Shown here: piece after piece, positions 8,815 to 37,881 of the stretch
Layout: each line of letters begins with the position of its first letter
Numbering within the stretch: the first letter of the stretch is position 1
Virus record (IMG/VR): IMGVR_UViG_2713896896_000009
Span: 1 to 37,881 of that record
Strand: one strand, 5' to 3'
DNA: 37,881 nt
From: a virus
Taxonomy: Duplodnaviria; Heunggongvirae; Uroviricota; Caudoviricetes
Made by a program: the position numbers and the translations under genes
The notes under the pieces: generated by a model
What the model was told of the DNA's origin: nothing
Seen by the model: the letters and a program-made list of their open reading frames with translations, nothing else
Database searches by the model: none

Positions 8815-8882
8815 GTCGGGTAATGATATTGAGCAGGCGACTCACTGGATGCCGATGCCAGAAGCGTTTCAGGAGGTTAACC

Positions 8883-9158
8883 GTGGCTAACCTGCAACTT
8901 GCCGTCAAAGGTGAATACTTCGATGCCATGATTCGCGGAGAGAAAACAGAAGAGTATCGCCTGGTTAATTCATACTGGTCTCGCCGTATATTGGATAAGA
9001 GCTATGATCGATTGATTATTACTAAGGGGTATCCGAAACGCGACGATTTAAGTCGCAGAATTGATGTCCCATATGGGGGATATGAGATCAAGGTGATAAC
9101 ACATCCACATTTTGGACCAGAGCCAGTAAAAGTATTTGCTATTAAGTTGACTCAATGA
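8883..9158 (+). CDS. ASCH/PUA-like domain protein
   Basis: GTG start after CAGGAGG chosen inside track ORF 8802-9158; GEYFDAMIRGEKTEEYR resembles the ASCH beta-barrel signature. Domain call is tentative. Confidence 0.5.
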   Translation: MANLQLAVKGEYFDAMIRGEKTEEYRLVNSYWSRRILDKSYDRLIITKGYPKRDDLSRRIDVPYGGYEIKVITHPHFGPEPVKVFAIKLTQ

Positions 9159-31307: not shown

Positions 31308-31464
31308 AGTTCCAGCCCCTTGTATCCGTTAAATGATTCGGCAACAATCATCACCCACCACGCGCGTAATCTCATCCCTGCGCCGTTCTTGCCGCCCGGC
31401 GACAACAAAAAGCAGTAACCACGCCCGCACACACATGCGACCATGCTGCACAGGGAGGGAGCCG
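31308..31464. promoter_or_regulatory. Divergent intergenic region between FI and D (late promoters expected)
   Basis: 157 bp between divergent starts; no Ogr-type TGT-N12-ACA site could be confidently placed. Confidence 0.3.
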
Positions 31465-32574
31465 ATGATTGACACCACCATGCAACTGTTCAACCAGAGT
31501 ACTGACCCCGTGAAGATGCCTGATTTTGATATTCTCGCGGAGGGGAAAACGCTGTCCGGTGTGGCAGAACGCCTGATGAGCCTGTCACTGACCGACAACC
31601 GGGGATTTGAAGCAGACCAGCTAACCATCACGCTGGATGATGCTGATGGTCAGTTGCAGTTGCCGCCACGGGGCGCTCGCCTGACGGTTCTCATTGGCTG
31701 GAAAGGTGAACCGCTGACAGAAAAAGGCACTTACATTGTTGATGAAATTGCTCATGAAGGACCGCCCGACAGACTGACCATTTCAGCCAGAAGCGCAGAT
31801 TTTCGGGATGAATTTAACGTCAAGCGCGAAGTATCCTGGCATGATGTGACCGTTGAACGCGTGGTGTCTGCAATTGCTCACCGATACGGCCTGAAACCGC
31901 AAATCAGCGAAATGCTGATGGATATTGAAATCGACCACGCTGACCAGACCGAAGAAAGCGACATGTCCTTCCTTACACGCATGGCGGAAATGCTGGGCGC
32001 AATCACCACGGTAAAAAGCGGTAATCTGTTATTCATCATGCCAGGTGGTGGCGTGAACGCGCAGGGAAAACCATTACCATCGTTTGCCATCACACGCAGC
32101 AGTGGCGATCGCCATCAGTTCCGCATTGCTGACCGCGAAGCGTATACGGGGGTACGCGCTTACTGGCTTGATCTTAATTACGGGAAAAAGAAAAAAGTCA
32201 GCGTGAAACGCCGTAAACCGCCAAAACCCAAAAAGGAGAAAAGTAGCAGCCGTGAAGGTGATTATATGGAAGGCGCGGAAGGCAATGTGTTTGTGTTACG
32301 CAAGACTTATCAGAACGAGCAGGCAGCAAGACGCGCAGCGGCGGCAAAGTGGCAGCAGCTACAACGCGGAGCCGCAGCGTTCTCCATCACGCTGGCGCGT
32401 GGACGTGCAGAACTCTATCCCGAAATGCATGGCACGGTGACAGGCTTCAAAAGTGACATCGACAATCAGGACTGGATTATTGCAAAAGCCGAGCACACCA
32501 TTGATAACAGTGGCTTTACCACGCAGCTTGAACTTGAAGCAAAAATCCCGGAATGGATAGCAGAAACAGAGTGA
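31465..32574 (+). CDS. D: Tail/late control protein, P2 gpD family
   Basis: ATG at 31465 after GGGAGGGA; LSLTDNRG.EADQLTITL and the FI-proximal position parallel P2 D. Confidence 0.88.
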   Translation: MIDTTMQLFNQSTDPVKMPDFDILAEGKTLSGVAERLMSLSLTDNRGFEADQLTITLDDADGQLQLPPRGARLTVLIGWKGEPLTEKGTYIVDEIAHEGPPDRLTISARSADFRDEFNVKREVSWHDVTVERVVSAIAHRYGLKPQISEMLMDIEIDHADQTEESDMSFLTRMAEMLGAITTVKSGNLLFIMPGGGVNAQGKPLPSFAITRSSGDRHQFRIADREAYTGVRAYWLDLNYGKKKKVSVKRRKPPKPKKEKSSSREGDYMEGAEGNVFVLRKTYQNEQAARRAAAAKWQQLQRGAAAFSITLARGRAELYPEMHGTVTGFKSDIDNQDWIIAKAEHTIDNSGFTTQLELEAKIPEWIAETE

Positions 32575-32799: not shown

Positions 32800-34302
32800 A
32801 TGAACAAAAAGCTGTATTTATTCCCAGACTCAAACATTTTTCTACAATGCAAGGCCTTGACGCAGGTAAATTTTTCCGAGATTACTGCTTGTGATGAAGT
32901 ATGTATCATTATTACAAGGCCCATTCAGCAAGAGATTGACCGCCAGAAAGGGCAAGGTAATTCCCGCCTATCCAAAAAAGCAAGGAAGGCTGCTAGCCTA
33001 TTTAATCAAGTAGTTGATTCAACTGACATGACTCTTGTTATTCGTGAACGCTCGCCGCGAGTTTTTCTTACCATGGATCTAAGCCTGAAACCATGTGAAC
33101 AGTTATCTGAACAATTGGATTATCAGGAGGCCGACGATCGTTTTGTTGGTATTGCGGCAGGGTATTGCGCTGACGATCCAGATTCGGAGGTGGCAATCAT
33201 TACCAATGATAGCGGTCCACGTTTTTCAGCAATAAAACATAATATAATCTGCTATAAAGTGCCTTCTTCATGGTTGCTTCCTGCTGAGCCAGATGAAAAG
33301 GATAAACAAATTAAATTGCTGGAAGCTAAGCTGAAGCAATTCACTCAGTCTATGCCCGATTTCAGCATTAAAGCAGCCGATGACGAGCAATTAAATATTG
33401 TACTTCCTTATTATACAGCTTTATCTGAATATGAAGTTGATAATTTGCTTTGTCAACTAACGGATGCATTCCCATTGGTTACAAACTTTGACAATGAACA
33501 AACTACCTCACAATCACTAGAAAAAATCATCAAGTCATTTAGTCAACAGGAGTATTTCCCTGTATCAGCAGATGATATTTCTCTTTATAAAGAAAAACAT
33601 TATCCACTTTGGAAAAAGCAGTGTGAAGAAATACTGAAAAACTGTCATACTCATATTAATCCGAAGGCAATAAAATACCCGCTGTCGTTTTTATTACAAA
33701 ACACAGGTTATACTATCGCTGAACGTGCTGTGGTAACATTTACAGCAAAAGGAGATTTTCGTCTGTGTGGATTTAATTGGGAGATAATGGAAGAGCTGAC
33801 TGAAAGCAAAAGGATTGACCTACCTTCAGCCCCTACCGCACCCAAAGGAAAATGGCGTAGTGTATGTGGCGTAACAGAAAGAATGCCTTACGCTTGGGGA
33901 GCTTTGGAAACACCGCTATCCAGTATAATTTCAAAAGAAATTGGTCCTTTGTTATCTCTTACTCCAACAGAAAGGGATAAAAACGATTTTTATTATAAAG
34001 AAAAGAGAAATGTGCCAGTTCAAGTTGTATCACTGGAATGCGAAGAGTGGCGTCATCAAGTCAAAGAAGAAATATTCCCGTTGTTCGTATATACAGCCAA
34101 CAAACCAAAGAAAGTGAATGGTGCAATTGAGGTAAGAGTTGATGCAAATAACCTTACCAATCCGGTCATTAAAACATTTAAATTAAAAATAACTATAGAA
34201 GAACATAGTGCATTTTCAACCATAACAGAAATGGTGCAGACATACATTCAAGAGCAGAAGAAAAGACAGAAAAGTTCTATTAGCGCACAAATCAAAACAT
34301 GA
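32800..34302 (+). CDS. 500-aa protein with N-terminal PIN-like nuclease domain and unassigned C-terminal region
   Basis: Clean ORF with GAGG RBS. The N-terminus shows the PIN arrangement of acidic residues (LFPDSN, DEVCIII, ADDRFVG, IITNDSG). The gene is visibly AT-rich relative to flanking phage genes and is inserted between D and ogr. Confidence 0.6.
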   Translation: MNKKLYLFPDSNIFLQCKALTQVNFSEITACDEVCIIITRPIQQEIDRQKGQGNSRLSKKARKAASLFNQVVDSTDMTLVIRERSPRVFLTMDLSLKPCEQLSEQLDYQEADDRFVGIAAGYCADDPDSEVAIITNDSGPRFSAIKHNIICYKVPSSWLLPAEPDEKDKQIKLLEAKLKQFTQSMPDFSIKAADDEQLNIVLPYYTALSEYEVDNLLCQLTDAFPLVTNFDNEQTTSQSLEKIIKSFSQQEYFPVSADDISLYKEKHYPLWKKQCEEILKNCHTHINPKAIKYPLSFLLQNTGYTIAERAVVTFTAKGDFRLCGFNWEIMEELTESKRIDLPSAPTAPKGKWRSVCGVTERMPYAWGALETPLSSIISKEIGPLLSLTPTERDKNDFYYKEKRNVPVQVVSLECEEWRHQVKEEIFPLFVYTANKPKKVNGAIEVRVDANNLTNPVIKTFKLKITIEEHSAFSTITEMVQTYIQEQKKRQKSSISAQIKT

Positions 34303-34545: not shown

Positions 34546-34806
34546 ATGTTCCGTTGTCCGCTTTGTCGCGCATCTGCCCGTATCCGCACCAGTCGTCCTG
34601 AAAATGATTCAAACACCGTGCGGCAAAAGTATTACCAGTGTAACAATCTAGAATGCGGCGTATGCTTCTCAACACTGGAAGCTTTCCATAAATTCACATC
34701 GAAACACGCCTCCGGCGTTCACTCTTCAGAAGGTATCCCGTGGCATGAGCTGCCAGCTTCACACAGGGGAAACAATCAGATGAGTTTGCCTTTGCCTCAA
34801 AATTAA
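34546..34806 (+). CDS. ogr: Ogr/Delta-type zinc-finger late-gene activator
   Basis: MFRCPLCRASARIRTSR...YYQCNNLEC matches the P2 Ogr C2C2 zinc-finger N-terminus. Confidence 0.85.
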   Translation: MFRCPLCRASARIRTSRPENDSNTVRQKYYQCNNLECGVCFSTLEAFHKFTSKHASGVHSSEGIPWHELPASHRGNNQMSLPLPQN

Positions 34807-34866
34807 CAGGCAGAATTGCCGGAGTAACAAAAAAGCGATAGATTACGCGCGGGTGCCTTTCGGCTA

Positions 34867-35079
34867 ATGGCTGGAGGGAATACCCAAAGGCCGGATGTGG
34901 AAAGGCCCCGGAAAACATCTCTGTTTAACCGAGGCCCTGACCATCTAACCTTAGCAAGTGATAGGTTAGCGCCTCCACAAAAAAGGAGCAAGCGCTATGT
35001 CGCAAAAATCGCTGATAGCCATCACGTTCTGCGTGACGGTAATCCTCATCATCTGGATGCTGCACGGTTCGCTGTGTGA
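34867..35079 (+). CDS. mok-like overlapping reading frame
   Basis: 70-aa ORF overlapping hok in another frame, as in hok/mok/sok loci. Confidence 0.4.
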   Translation: MAGGNTQRPDVERPRKTSLFNRGPDHLTLASDRLAPPQKRSKRYVAKIADSHHVLRDGNPHHLDAARFAV

Positions 35080-35137
35080 AATACGGATGAGCTTCTGGGG
35101 AGCGGAGTTTGCGGCGTTCTTACAGTGTAAGCAGTAA
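34997..35137 (+). CDS. hok: Hok/Gef-family type I toxin (46 aa)
   Basis: MSQKSLIAITFCVTVILIIWMLHGSLCEIRMSFWGAEFAAFLQCKQ has an N-terminal TM followed by the Hok signature SLCEIR and a C-terminal Cys; AAGGAG RBS. Confidence 0.75.
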   Translation: MSQKSLIAITFCVTVILIIWMLHGSLCEIRMSFWGAEFAAFLQCKQ

Positions 35138-35168: not shown

Positions 35169-35399
35169 AATCGGGGGCTAGGGTAAGGTCGATAAGGCAC
35201 CCTATCTCACAGCTCTAAATGCAAAAATTCCATGAAACTGTGGGATTTTTGCATCACATACTGATACAGACCAGCCCTTCTATATGCCTCACTCTATACC
35301 AGCTAATCAATTGACACTTATCAATAAAAAAAAATCTGATAAAATCAAAATGTTTTGTAACAAATATCAACTCGTATTAATCCAAAGGAGGCGGATTAC

Positions 35400-35732
35400 A
35401 TGGCATTAATCAAATGTCCTGAATGCCAGAAAGAGGTGAGCGATTCAGCATTGTATTGCCCTGCTTGTGGTAAACAACTACAAAAACTTAAGCGTTCATT
35501 TTTTGGACGGATCATTAAGTGGGTTTTTATATTATTTAATATTTTTATGATCTATACGCTTTTAGTTGGACTAGGAGGCACTAGTGAAATAATAAATAAT
35601 GCCACATCCGATGCCGAAAAAACCGGTGCAGTTATTGGTACAGGCTTAGGTTTAATTACCATTGGAAGCTTATGGGTTATTGGTGATATCATCATCGGAA
35701 TTTTAGTATTTCTTACTAAACCAAAGGGATAA
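35400..35732 (+). CDS. Zinc-ribbon membrane protein (N-terminal CPxC...CPxC, two TM segments)
   Basis: MALIKCPECQKEVSDSALYCPACGK followed by two hydrophobic helices; AT-rich; AAGGAGG RBS. Confidence 0.6.
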   Translation: MALIKCPECQKEVSDSALYCPACGKQLQKLKRSFFGRIIKWVFILFNIFMIYTLLVGLGGTSEIINNATSDAEKTGAVIGTGLGLITIGSLWVIGDIIIGILVFLTKPKG

Positions 35733-35736
35733 TAAA

Positions 35737-36630
35737 ATGAAAAATATAATTTTTTCTATAGGTGCATCATTTATATCAATTAGTGTACTGCCTGTTCACG
35801 CAGCAACTGAACATAAGAACTTCAATGCAGTACTCCAGTGCCGAGCAATAGAAAATAATAAAGACAGACTTTCTTGTTACGATAAGTCAATACAACCGAC
35901 TCGAACGAAAGTTGCTGAAAAATTCGAAAGCAGAGATCAATGCCCTGATGAGAAAGATGATGATAGACGTTTATCTTGTTATGATCGTTTCTTTTCTCCA
36001 ACATTTACTCCATCTGTAAACTCAAAATCTAAAACGGAAAAGCCAGTAACAACAGAGGCTCAGCAACCAAATCTTTCTGAGATATCTAAATGTCGTGCAG
36101 AAAATGATAAAGAAGCCAGACTAAACTGCTACGATAAACTATTCCCACAGGATAAAGCCGTTCAAGCTGAATCAAAATTAGAGAAAGCCACAGATGTAGG
36201 AAAATGGCACACATCCATTACTACATCGCCAATTGATGATTCGAAAAATGTAATTTTATCGTTAGAAAGTGATGATTATATCAGAACTCCATTTGGAGAA
36301 ACGGTTACTCCTACTCTGTTTATAGCTTGCCGAGAAAAGAAAACAGAAGTATTTCTTAGTTGGGATGTATATTTAGGCCTTGAACAAACCAGCATGCTTT
36401 ATCGCCTTGATAAACAGAAAGCAGTTGAGCGAAACTGGCTAGTATCTACAGATACAAAGGCTGTTTTTTATAAAGGTAATGACATTGATTTCATCCGAAA
36501 ACTAGCCAACTCAAGCAAAATGTATACAAAAATAACGCCTTATAATGAGAGCCCCGTAAGTGCAACTTTCAATTTAAACGGCCTGTCAAACGCGCTAAAA
36601 CCGCTTCAAGCTGCTTGTAACTGGAAATAG
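35737..36630 (+). CDS. Secreted protein with three tandem Cys-containing repeats and an unassigned C-terminal domain
   Basis: Signal peptide (MKNIIFSIGASFISISVLPVHA); repeats LQCRAIENNKDRLSCYDK, DQCPDEKDDDRRLSCYDR and SKCRAENDKEARLNCYDK; starts 4 nt after the upstream gene; AT-rich. Confidence 0.6.
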   Translation: MKNIIFSIGASFISISVLPVHAATEHKNFNAVLQCRAIENNKDRLSCYDKSIQPTRTKVAEKFESRDQCPDEKDDDRRLSCYDRFFSPTFTPSVNSKSKTEKPVTTEAQQPNLSEISKCRAENDKEARLNCYDKLFPQDKAVQAESKLEKATDVGKWHTSITTSPIDDSKNVILSLESDDYIRTPFGETVTPTLFIACREKKTEVFLSWDVYLGLEQTSMLYRLDKQKAVERNWLVSTDTKAVFYKGNDIDFIRKLANSSKMYTKITPYNESPVSATFNLNGLSNALKPLQAACNWK

Positions 36631-36664
36631 TATTAAATCATGTGGCTTAGCCACAATCACAGAC

Positions 36665-36696
36665 AACACAAAGCCCGTGAAAACGGGCTTTGTGTT
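36665..36696 (+). terminator. Rho-independent terminator after the two-gene cassette
   Basis: Stem aacacaaagcccgt / acgggctttgtgtt, loop gaaa, followed by a T-containing tract. Confidence 0.6.
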
Positions 36697-36702
36697 ATCT
36701 GT

Positions 36703-36721: not shown

Positions 36722-36897
36722 GCGTGGACACGCGCTGACATAAATCCTTTTACATCAATAAATTAAGTCATCATTTTTTTCATCAACAAGGATTTTCACG
36801 TTTGTGGTACCTGTATGAGACGAGAGTTAACCAAACAAGTGTGCCATAATCTCGCGCCCAGGCATACTTGCGATGATTTCAGGTATAAGGATACATA

Positions 36898-37881
36898 ATG
36901 ATACAACCTATTTCCGGCCCTCCTCCCGGGCAACTGCCAGACCGGGAAAACAGCGCAGGCAATCAGCCTTTATCCAGTCTGCAACGTACCGCCCTGGAAA
37001 GCTTGATGACCAAAGTAACCTCGCTGACGCAACAACAGAGAGCGGAGTTATGGGCCGGCATCAAACACGACATCGGCCTGCCAGGCGATTCACCTTTACT
37101 CTCGCGCCACTTCCCCGCTGCGGAACATAACCTCGCGCAACGTCTGCTTGCCGCGCAAAAGAGCTATTCTGCTCGTCGGCTTTTAGCCCAGTTAGGGGAA
37201 TATTTACGGTTGGGAAATAACCGTCAGGCGGTTACGGATTACATCCGAAATAACTTTGGTCAGACACCGCTTAACCAACTCTCGCCAGAACAATTAAAGA
37301 CCATTCTTAACCTGTTACAGGAAGGGAAAATGGTTATTCCTCAACCACAGCAACGTCAGGCTACCGATCGTCCTTTATTACCGGCGGAGCATAATACGCT
37401 TAAACAACTGGTGACTAAACTCGCCGCTGCGACAGGGGAACCCAGCAAGCAGATCTGGCAGTCGATGCTGGAGCTTTCTGGTGTGAAAGATGGCGAACTA
37501 ATCCCGGCAAAACTGTTTAACCATCTGGTCACCTGGTTGCAGGCGCGTCAGAGCTTAAGCCAACAAAATACCCCGACGCTGGAATCGCTTCAGATGGCGC
37601 TAAAGAAACCGCTGGATACCAACGAGCTGGCAGCACTATCCGCGTATATCGAGCAAAAATATGGCCTTTCCGCGCAATCCGTCCTTTCTTCTGTACAGGC
37701 TGAGGATATCCTGAACCAGCTCTATCAACGGCGGGTTAAAGGGATTGATCCACGAGACATCCAGCCACTGCTCAATCCCTTTCCACCATTAATGAACACA
37801 TTGCAAAATATGGCGACACGTCCCAGCGTGTGGATTTTGTTAGTCGCCATCCTCATCATGCTGGTCTGGCTGGTACGTTAA
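36898..37881 (+). CDS. flk: Flagellar regulator Flk (host chromosomal gene)
   Basis: MIQPISGPPPGQ N-terminus, PLLSRHFPAAE, LPLGNNRQAV, IPQPQQ and a C-terminal membrane anchor (WILLVAILIMLVWLV) match enterobacterial Flk as I recall it; complete ORF ending at the window edge. Confidence 0.8.
   Translation: MIQPISGPPPGQLPDRENSAGNQPLSSLQRTALESLMTKVTSLTQQQRAELWAGIKHDIGLPGDSPLLSRHFPAAEHNLAQRLLAAQKSYSARRLLAQLGEYLRLGNNRQAVTDYIRNNFGQTPLNQLSPEQLKTILNLLQEGKMVIPQPQQRQATDRPLLPAEHNTLKQLVTKLAAATGEPSKQIWQSMLELSGVKDGELIPAKLFNHLVTWLQARQSLSQQNTPTLESLQMALKKPLDTNELAALSAYIEQKYGLSAQSVLSSVQAEDILNQLYQRRVKGIDPRDIQPLLNPFPPLMNTLQNMATRPSVWILLVAILIMLVWLVR

Follow-up and report, generated by a model that had tools for sequence, protein, structure and literature searches.

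Classical exclusion and defense morons of phages include P2 old, tin, and fun(Z), lambda rexAB, HK97 gp15, and T4 imm/sp. The accessory loci of P2-like phages are known reservoirs of anti-phage systems (PMC9122126, PMC13586616), and SDIC4B, a periplasmic protein with a VasI-like fold, gives 10-200-fold protection against phages on its own (bioRxiv 10.1101/2024.01.28.577318). A 2026 review (PMC13584744) lists bona fide TagO/VasI of type VI secretion systems (T6SSs) as a protein of unknown function, and another study (PMC6033998) groups its VasI with the T6SS cluster genes found in phylogroup B1 strains. Here we analyze a 37,881-nt stretch of DNA (positions 1 to 37,881 of IMG/VR record IMGVR_UViG_2713896896_000009; hereafter the window) that holds a P2-like prophage, and within it a two-gene cassette made up of two open reading frames (ORFs), encoding a predicted inner-membrane zinc-ribbon protein (ORF1) and a predicted secreted VasI-like protein (ORF2). 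Our data indicate that this cassette is very likely an autonomous accessory unit, or moron, of phiSM/Xuanwuvirus-type and other P2-like temperate phages that encodes two envelope proteins.

Layout, promoter, and distribution of the cassette

ORF1 (35400..35732, + strand; 110 aa) and ORF2 (35737..36630, + strand; 297 aa) are co-directional and separated by 4 nt (TAAA), in agreement with an initial annotation of the window, and a Shine-Dalgarno sequence, AAGGAGG, can be read directly ahead of ORF1 (35384..35390, + strand). The GC content of the cassette is 36.2% vs 52.9% in window positions 1-32600, so its description as far more AT-rich than the phage backbone holds. The cassette was also correctly placed between hok (34997-35137) and the right prophage/host junction, attR. 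We found no attL/attR direct repeat of at least 12 nt within the window, because the window starts at the stop codon of the integrase gene (1-1020, - strand), and we therefore placed attR using the published core of phage phiSM. The attR core, TTTTCATCAACAAGGAT (36777..36793), lies at the 5' end of pdxB adjoining flk and is the reverse complement of the 17-bp phiSM attP core, ATCCTTGTTGATGAAAA, which was determined experimentally for a phage that integrates in the 5' end of pdxB (PMC6456863). Matches to phage records stop at ~36793-36800, agreeing with this position, and homology to prophage-free E. coli begins only at ~36777, where pdxB abuts flk. Together, these three boundaries place the cassette inside the phage. 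We could rule out that ORF1 and ORF2 are host core genes, since prophage-free E. coli pdxB-flk loci lack them, which upholds the earlier view that the pair is phage-borne.

The attachment site of the window's phage is the phiSM attB, located in the 5' end of pdxB. The host flk gene (36898-37881, starting at 36898) is ~84.5% identical to flk of essentially all E. coli genomes, indicating that the host is a related enterobacterial species and not E. coli proper.

A promoter scan identified a sigma-70-type promoter upstream of ORF1 (35318..35345, + strand), with a -35 element TTATCA, a 16-nt spacer, and a TG-extended -10 element TAAAAT. Alignment of the region upstream of the zinc-ribbon gene in several other genera revealed a -35 element TTGTCA, a 17-nt spacer, and a -10 element GATAAAAT, and in most of the genera aligned this conserved promoter is preceded by the ogr terminator. 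In the aligned prophages the promoter is followed by a near-invariant segment, CAAAATGTTTTGTAACAAAT, containing the palindrome TTTGT-A-ACAAA, which an exact match locates in the window at 35354..35364, just 3' of the -10 element and in an operator-like position. The conserved promoter and palindrome indicate that the cassette is transcribed autonomously. Within the palindrome, TGTAACAA/TGTTACAA fit TGTWACAW, the OmpR motif derived from chromatin immunoprecipitation (PMC3586657). Because this motif is not enriched across the window (6 found vs 4.9 expected), we treat OmpR as only a lead to a possible regulator of the cassette promoter.

Beyond ORF2, positions 36659..36702 (+ strand) are predicted to form a hairpin with a 19-bp stem (-31.1 kcal/mol, z -9.2 by RNA folding). 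This element had been described as a strong terminator; the hairpin is indeed very stable, but it has no U tract, and a terminator scan passed over it. The cassette thus has most hallmarks of a moron, namely its own conserved promoter, atypical GC content, a position inside attR, and dispensability, the hairpin being a putative terminator.

The pair is common. We identified it in 246 of 5426 complete E. coli genomes, with nine matches on plasmids (the single one examined is a decayed copy of the phage arm), and in P2-like prophages of Klebsiella, Enterobacter, Salmonella, Citrobacter, Raoultella, Brenneria, and others. Protein identity is 95-99% in Citrobacter phage Shae_phiSM and in Escherichia phages PhiR44_2, 500465-2, and Xuanwuvirus P884B11, and ~65-71% in Klebsiella phages such as 3LV2017. 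Prophages of Klebsiella, Raoultella, Enterobacter, Salmonella, and Brenneria carry the two ORFs intact and in the same order, at 40-74% protein identity, a degree of conservation across genera that points to more than chance. We inspected gene context at ~20 related loci from at least eight genera (Klebsiella, Raoultella, Enterobacter, Salmonella, Brenneria, Pantoea, Phytobacter, E. coli, and Photobacterium), and found relatives at the right end of P2-like prophages beside ogr, with a few elsewhere. The dominant order, seen at several integration sites, is tail sheath, gpD, ogr, (hok), zinc-ribbon gene, VasI-like gene, and host DNA; in Pantoea coffeiphila, ogr is followed by the VasI-like gene only. 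The related phage P88 lacks the cassette, its match to the window ending after hok, and other P2-like prophages carry other gene sets in its place.

More distant VasI-like genes are found in unrelated temperate phages of Brucella, Labrenzia, Pasteurella, Klebsiella, and E. coli, and also in lambdoid phages. In Klebsiella phage ST11-VIM1phi8.1 (1513-2929) and Brucella phage BiPBO1 (1617-3034), a short VasI-like gene lies directly 3' of the repressor gene and is co-directional with it, and a Photobacterium homolog adjoins a gene of the LprI type (lysozyme-inhibitor family).

Three records carry altered or misleading versions of the locus. On a plasmid of enterotoxigenic E. coli (NZ_LR883008.1, 3626-6089), we observed a decayed right arm with partial gpD, ogr, hok, the zinc-ribbon gene, and a VasI-like gene split in two, with a group II intron adjoining. 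A 4.2-kb contig, DEQA01000038.1, assigned to the Planococcaceae metagenome-assembled genome UBA3378, carries the order gpD'-ogr-hok-Zn-VasI at 94-99% protein identity to the window; its assignment to Firmicutes almost certainly reflects mis-binning or contamination. In the GenBank record of Shae_phiSM (OR565851.1, 165-3403), the annotation is apparently shifted by one gene, with "tagO" on the 110-aa zinc-ribbon gene, the VasI-like gene labeled "hypothetical", and "ogr" on a 1110-nt gene of gpD size.

The VasI-like and zinc-ribbon proteins

The N-terminus of ORF2 bears a predicted signal peptide (35737..35802, + strand; residues 1-22), with a hydrophobic segment at residues 4-23 and an AXA-type site with predicted cleavage between VHA and the following A. 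All homologs have an equivalent N-terminus, and ORF2 is predicted to be Sec-exported. It is followed by three C-x11-C repeats containing RLxCYD, which a regular-expression search located at residues 35-49, 69-83, and 119-133; both the signal peptide and the three cysteine-pair repeats had been recognized in the initial annotation. The repeats correspond to three cysteine-stapled helical hairpins (35821..36141, + strand; residues 29-51, 69-85, and 113-135) joined by disordered linkers. In an AlphaFold 2 (AF2) model, the hairpin helices span residues 30-35/41-51, 75-85, and 113-120/125-135, and the linkers have a predicted local distance difference test (pLDDT) score <50. Each repeat aligns with the start of the Pfam VasI model (positions 1-~35), and VasI-like homologs possess one, two, or three hairpins (210-218, ~250, and ~297 aa).

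When the hairpin region was searched against 1.84 billion representative proteins, only 12 matched, with no informative fusion partners. The matches include secreted proteins that consist of hairpins only (P0153, P0154, P0156, P0158, and P0159), in which CLxIEDxxKERLDCYD and CRFxKEQDERLxCYN alternate with proline-rich linkers. The existence of such proteins suggests that the first ~35 positions of the VasI model are a separable mini-domain without a Pfam family of its own.

The C-terminal ~170 residues of ORF2, previously left unassigned, contain a beta-sandwich domain of VasI fold, probably shared with IalB (36190..36627, + strand; residues ~152-297), with conserved cysteines C198 and C294. 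AF2, run with a 29-sequence alignment, models residues ~155-297 as a confident beta-sandwich (pLDDT >90). ORF2 probably contains four disulfides, one per hairpin plus C198-C294. The statement that ORF2 belongs to no known family also needs correction: the protein matches Pfam VasI PF11319 with 89.5 bits (E 2.7e-25; residues 118-296 to model positions 1-184), above the gathering threshold of 26.5 bits, and it also matches phrog_1848. The Prokaryotic Genome Annotation Pipeline (PGAP) names it "type VI secretion system-associated protein TagO", and a near-identical phiSM gene was already listed in 2019 as a "T6SS VasI family protein" (PMC6456863). The C-terminal fold also occurs in uncharacterized proteins of strictly lytic T4-like phages such as RB16 and KP15. 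A sequence search of the PDB with the cassette proteins found nothing.

We scored ORF2 and its relatives with TIGR03360, the equivalog model for T6SS VasI/TagO, which has a curated cutoff of 124.2 bits. Our positive control, ECs_0222, the TagO encoded beside clpV in the T6SS cluster of E. coli O157 Sakai, scored 257.4 bits, while ORF2 scored 76.3 bits, below the cutoff, and four other phage-type relatives scored 35-78 bits. ORF2 and ECs_0222 are distant homologs that share 26% identity over 195 aa (E 5e-11), in an alignment that spans the hairpin and the C-terminal C..W motif. In T6SS clusters, taking the Sakai and Vibrio layouts for contrast, the TagO gene lies between clpV/vasH and tssA; we detected no T6SS genes within 4-10 kb at any of the ~20 related loci. 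The equivalog scores and the gene context, read against ECs_0222, argue strongly against ORF2 being a true T6SS TagO. By these sequence comparisons, ORF2 is a Pfam VasI member belonging to a phage-borne paralogous clade, and it is probably not a T6SS component. Automatic annotation makes the protein a T6SS component, and at least one paper counts the pair as a virulence-associated T6SS factor; the TagO label is probably misleading and over-reaching.

ORF1 carries a CPxC...CPxC zinc ribbon at residues 4-27 (C6/C9 and C20/C23; Pfam Zn_Ribbon_1, E 1.1e-7), followed by two hydrophobic transmembrane (TM) helices at residues ~38-60 (TM1) and ~83-106 (TM2), an architecture that was correctly recognized from the outset. 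The charge pattern is positive-inside, and the predicted topology places the ribbon and the C-terminus in the cytoplasm and an acidic loop of ~20 aa in the periplasm. An AF2 model shows a small beta ribbon and then helices at residues 34-66 and 71-105. ORF1 matches phrog_6586 (E 5.7e-41), and its family has a mean column identity of 73%, including in the periplasmic loop and a C-terminal LT(K/R)PKG motif.

ORF1, too, had been left without a known family, yet its membrane part is DrpB-like. Residues 28-109 match the full length of the NCBIfam DrpB model NF038392 (E 3.6e-4) with 20.8 bits, under the cutoff of 50, and 21 of the 23 ORF1 family members match this model over its whole length (E <= 0.01, best 7.1e-7). 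An hhalign comparison of the ORF1 family with E. coli DrpB gave an E-value of 1.2e-3 and a probability of 19%, and aligned DrpB T89 (in YTRPR) to the invariant T106 of ORF1 (in LT(K/R)PK). DrpB is found at the divisome; when overproduced it activates Rcs via RcsC and also induces Psp. Rcs induction requires T89, and the structural features of DrpB have been defined (PMC7648144, PMC11709261). ORF1 has these features, namely a predicted N-in/C-in orientation, two TM helices, a periplasmic loop of ~20 aa, and a threonine at the distal end of the second TM helix. It is plausible from these alignments that ORF1 is a fusion of a zinc ribbon to a membrane hairpin homologous to DrpB.

Several loci carry only one partner or a substitute. 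In an E. coli variant, a 250-aa VasI-like gene lies beside a gene for a different, 98-aa protein that starts with a CxxC...CxxC ribbon and has two TM helices (Pfam TM2), an arrangement that supports a partnership; an hhalign comparison of this TM2 partner's ribbon gave a probability of 90% (E 1.5e-6). A Salmonella variant has the VasI-like gene without a membrane partner. Lone zinc-ribbon/DrpB-like genes, 64-69% identical and without a VasI-like gene, occur in Pantoea (in the cueR-copA interval) and in Haemophilus paracuniculus (after uvrB), the Haemophilus copy having a different upstream region. Judged by these arrangements, the partnership of the zinc-ribbon membrane protein and the VasI-like protein is facultative. 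One lone Pantoea copy (locus L013, 5915-5975) has the phage-type promoter and palindrome, and at another (locus L015) a P2-like integrase gene abuts the zinc-ribbon gene, so that the lone Pantoea copy is probably a relic of a phage arm. For the same reasons we down-weighted the idea that ORF1 was captured from a Pantoea host gene. Across nine loci, mean identity is 70% for the membrane protein vs 57% for the periplasmic protein. In some P2-like prophages of E. coli (loci L010/L011, at 8830-9126, - strand) and of Salmonella, we found the two-hairpin, 250-aa VasI-like gene inverted at the same prophage end.

Neighboring genes and possible functions

The prophage in the window has tail and head genes after the integrase gene, and its right part includes gpD (31333-32574) and ogr (34546-34806). 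Directly 5' of the cassette lies a hok/sok-type toxin-antitoxin locus (34851..35137, + strand), in which hok matches Pfam HOK_GEF (E 1.8e-7) and sok scores 38.8 bits in Rfam, under the gathering score of 59; Rfam otherwise gave nothing. We observed hok/sok at this place in the E. coli/Citrobacter lineage of phiSM-type phages, and did not detect hok between ogr and the zinc-ribbon gene in Klebsiella-type loci, where the gap is ~100 bp. Between gpD and ogr lies an AT-rich gene (32800-34302, + strand; 38% GC) whose 500-aa product has an N-terminal PIN_4 domain (E 5.7e-8). This gene is absent from the otherwise close Shae_phiSM and has no PADLOC or NCBIfam match; its sequence suggests another moron, independent of the cassette, and a candidate gene for defense or a toxin.

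Tentatively, we favor a possible role for the cassette as an envelope module that the lysogen expresses for protection from incoming phages. The unit would be expressed from the prophage, and the periplasmic VasI-like ORF2 would be its active part, binding or blocking an object in transit across the envelope; the likeliest target would be a superinfecting phage's tail tip or DNA-entry apparatus. ORF1 would be the inner-membrane partner of ORF2, serving either as an anchor or as a transducer of signals to the cytoplasm or to envelope-stress pathways. The lysogen and its prophage would both be protected, by superinfection exclusion, as the initial annotation proposed, or by defense at the periplasmic or inner-membrane step. 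We consider this a reasonable hypothesis with indirect support. It is based on the moron structure with its own promoter, and on the VasI-like genes behind repressor genes in two unrelated temperate phages, as a position directly 3' of the repressor is typical of lysogen-expressed exclusion genes. It draws further on the neighboring hok/sok locus and AT-rich PIN-domain gene, on the role of P2 accessory loci as defense reservoirs, and on the precedent of SDIC4B. We also counted in its favor that the periplasmic protein diverges faster than its membrane partner and varies in repeat number.

Several results weigh against phage protection. At E <= 0.01, ORF1, ORF2, and the PIN-domain protein have no match in PADLOC-DB 2.0.0 (2023), and the interval between ogr and attR is not among the P2 defense hotspots listed (PMC13586616). 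Using SDIC4A and SDIC4B sequences taken from the plasmid maps of the preprint, we ruled out that the cassette is a member of SDIC4: SDIC4B and the ORF2 family have no detectable sequence similarity (hhalign probability 0.08%), neither SDIC4 protein matches Pfam VasI, and SDIC4A is a different, periplasmic protein, so that the SDIC4 precedent is a fold analogy only. What sequence homology the cassette has leads elsewhere, to an accessory protein of the T6SS and to DrpB, which belongs to the divisome and activates Rcs. Some VasI-like genes, including those adjacent to repressor genes, lack the membrane partner, and the lone partner in Pantoea is remnant-like; given these solo occurrences, ORF1 and ORF2 may not act together. 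Finally, we infer expression in the lysogen from promoter conservation. Papers on the transcriptome of Shiga toxin-producing E. coli and on the "bully phage" hold no data on the ORF2 gene.

The DrpB-like features of ORF1 suggest another function, which we consider unlikely: ORF1 could act like overproduced DrpB, at the divisome and/or by switching on Rcs (and Psp) through RcsC, while ORF2 would work at sites of wall growth. The gain would then be colanic-acid capsule, stress tolerance, or colonization, with resistance to phages or T6SSs only a by-product. The matches of nearly the whole ORF1 family to the full DrpB model, the conserved architecture and TRP(K/R) motif with the Rcs-relevant T89, and the effects of overproduced DrpB on Rcs and Psp all fit such a modulator, as does the IalB-domain periplasmic protein RgsG, which is essential and located at the growth pole in Sinorhizobium (PMC7327166). 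However, the similarity to DrpB is weak by both measures (20.8 vs 50 bits, and an hhalign probability of 19%), TM segments inflate such scores, and the reported effects of DrpB are multicopy phenotypes, with no single-copy role known (PMC7648144, PMC11709261). DrpB has no zinc ribbon, and the modulator leaves the repressor-adjacent, solo VasI-like genes of other phages unexplained. The palindrome, which fits the OmpR motif, would link expression to envelope or osmotic signals, but that motif is not enriched in the window. This explanation overlaps with phage protection, because capsule made under Rcs control can stop phages.

Three further explanations are less likely. That the prophage VasI is a genuine T6SS accessory, assisting or regulating a host T6SS and so raising the competitiveness or virulence of the lysogen, would agree with the Pfam VasI score of ORF2, its similarity to ECs_0222, its annotation by PGAP and in the phiSM paper, and the T6SSs of C. 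rodentium and many E. coli strains (PMC6456863). We judge this quite improbable, because the phage-borne proteins fall well below the equivalog cutoff of 124 bits (76 for ORF2 and 35-78 for its relatives, against 257 for the cluster TagO), none of the ~20 loci lies in or near a T6SS cluster, and VasI-like genes are also found in Brucella, Pasteurella, and lambdoid phages. It also counts against this role that carrier phages form lysogens in E. coli K-12 (PMC6456863). By textbook accounts, this strain has no T6SS. T6SS VasI/TagO itself is a protein whose function is listed as unknown (PMC13584744). Exported ORF2 might instead act as a shield that neutralizes or obstructs the T6SS spikes, effectors, or tailocins of competitors in the periplasm. 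Such a shield is purely inferential and highly unlikely in our estimation: ORF2 is predicted to be periplasmic and has a homolog encoded alongside a contractile injection machine, the carrier phage is itself contractile-tailed, and the Photobacterium homolog lies beside an LprI-type gene, yet T6SS VasI is encoded by the attacker and not the prey, and profile searches revealed no similarity of ORF2 to known T6SS immunity families. A role in the lytic cycle, whether in lysis timing, in envelope remodeling for release, or in helping injection into the next host, would suit an envelope-located pair in a phage genome, and the same fold exists in the strictly lytic RB16 and KP15. The position of the cassette outside the late operons and beyond ogr, with its own sigma-70 promoter and an AT-rich composition relative to the backbone, makes a lytic role very hard to credit; lysis genes are found elsewhere in the genome, and the related phage P88 is viable without the cassette.

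If phage protection is the function, the cassette could conceivably represent a widespread and unrecognized periplasmic defense of prophages, although we regard this extension as doubtful. A phage-adapted VasI paralog would recognize the tip of an incoming device for injection, contractile or other, such as a phage tail or possibly a T6SS spike, and either block entry or signal through the zinc-ribbon/DrpB-like protein, for example in an Rcs or membrane-depolarizing response.

Comparison with known systems

The cassette is not categorically new: databases list both genes under family names, and the similarity to VasI has been noted in one paper. What our analysis adds is the separation of the phage-borne proteins, as a clade, from the T6SS equivalog, their conserved slot between ogr and attR in P2-like phages of many genera, the pairing with a zinc-ribbon/DrpB-like or analogous zinc-ribbon/TM2 membrane protein, and a conserved promoter with an operator-like palindrome. 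If the cassette is an anti-phage or anti-injection device, it would be a new class among prophage-encoded defenses, and the ogr-attR end of P2-like phages would be a further cargo site. It would also offer a tractable two-gene system for the roles of the VasI/TagO and IalB folds and of the DrpB-type hairpin, and periplasmic defense in particular would give a first clue to what the VasI/TagO and IalB fold families do. With no such phenotype, the cassette would be an ordinary uncharacterized moron.

Classical prophage morons are elements of the same kind, being dispensable accessory genes with their own promoter and terminator and an atypical composition, some of which encode membrane proteins; the exclusion and defense morons named at the outset have no sequence or fold relation to the cassette, whose activity is putative. 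SDIC4 of Serratia (SDIC4A and SDIC4B) is likewise a small two-gene operon, common in Enterobacteria, with an exported active protein of reported VasI-like fold. In contrast to the cassette, SDIC4 is tied to BrxR in defense islands and not to P2 phages, and SDIC4A is periplasmic, not a zinc-ribbon membrane protein.

DrpB (YedR) has in common with ORF1 residues 28-109 a two-helix N-in/C-in topology, a periplasmic loop of ~20 aa, and the threonine motif TRP(K/R), and differs in having no zinc ribbon, whereas ORF1 has an N-terminal ribbon, is phage-borne, and scores below the family cutoff. IalB (invasion-associated locus B; PF06776, with a gathering threshold of 22.1 bits; PDB 3dtd), unlike ORF2, has no hairpin repeats and is the product of a chromosomal gene of Alphaproteobacteria. 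The T6SS proteins VasI/TagO (PF11319; VCA0118 of V. cholerae and ECs_0222) possess, like ORF2, a signal peptide, an RLxCYD hairpin, a beta-sandwich, and a C-terminal Cys-x-Trp. They have one hairpin in place of the three in ORF2, and ORF2, unlike them, is encoded at the ogr-attR end of P2-like phages and paired with a zinc-ribbon membrane protein.

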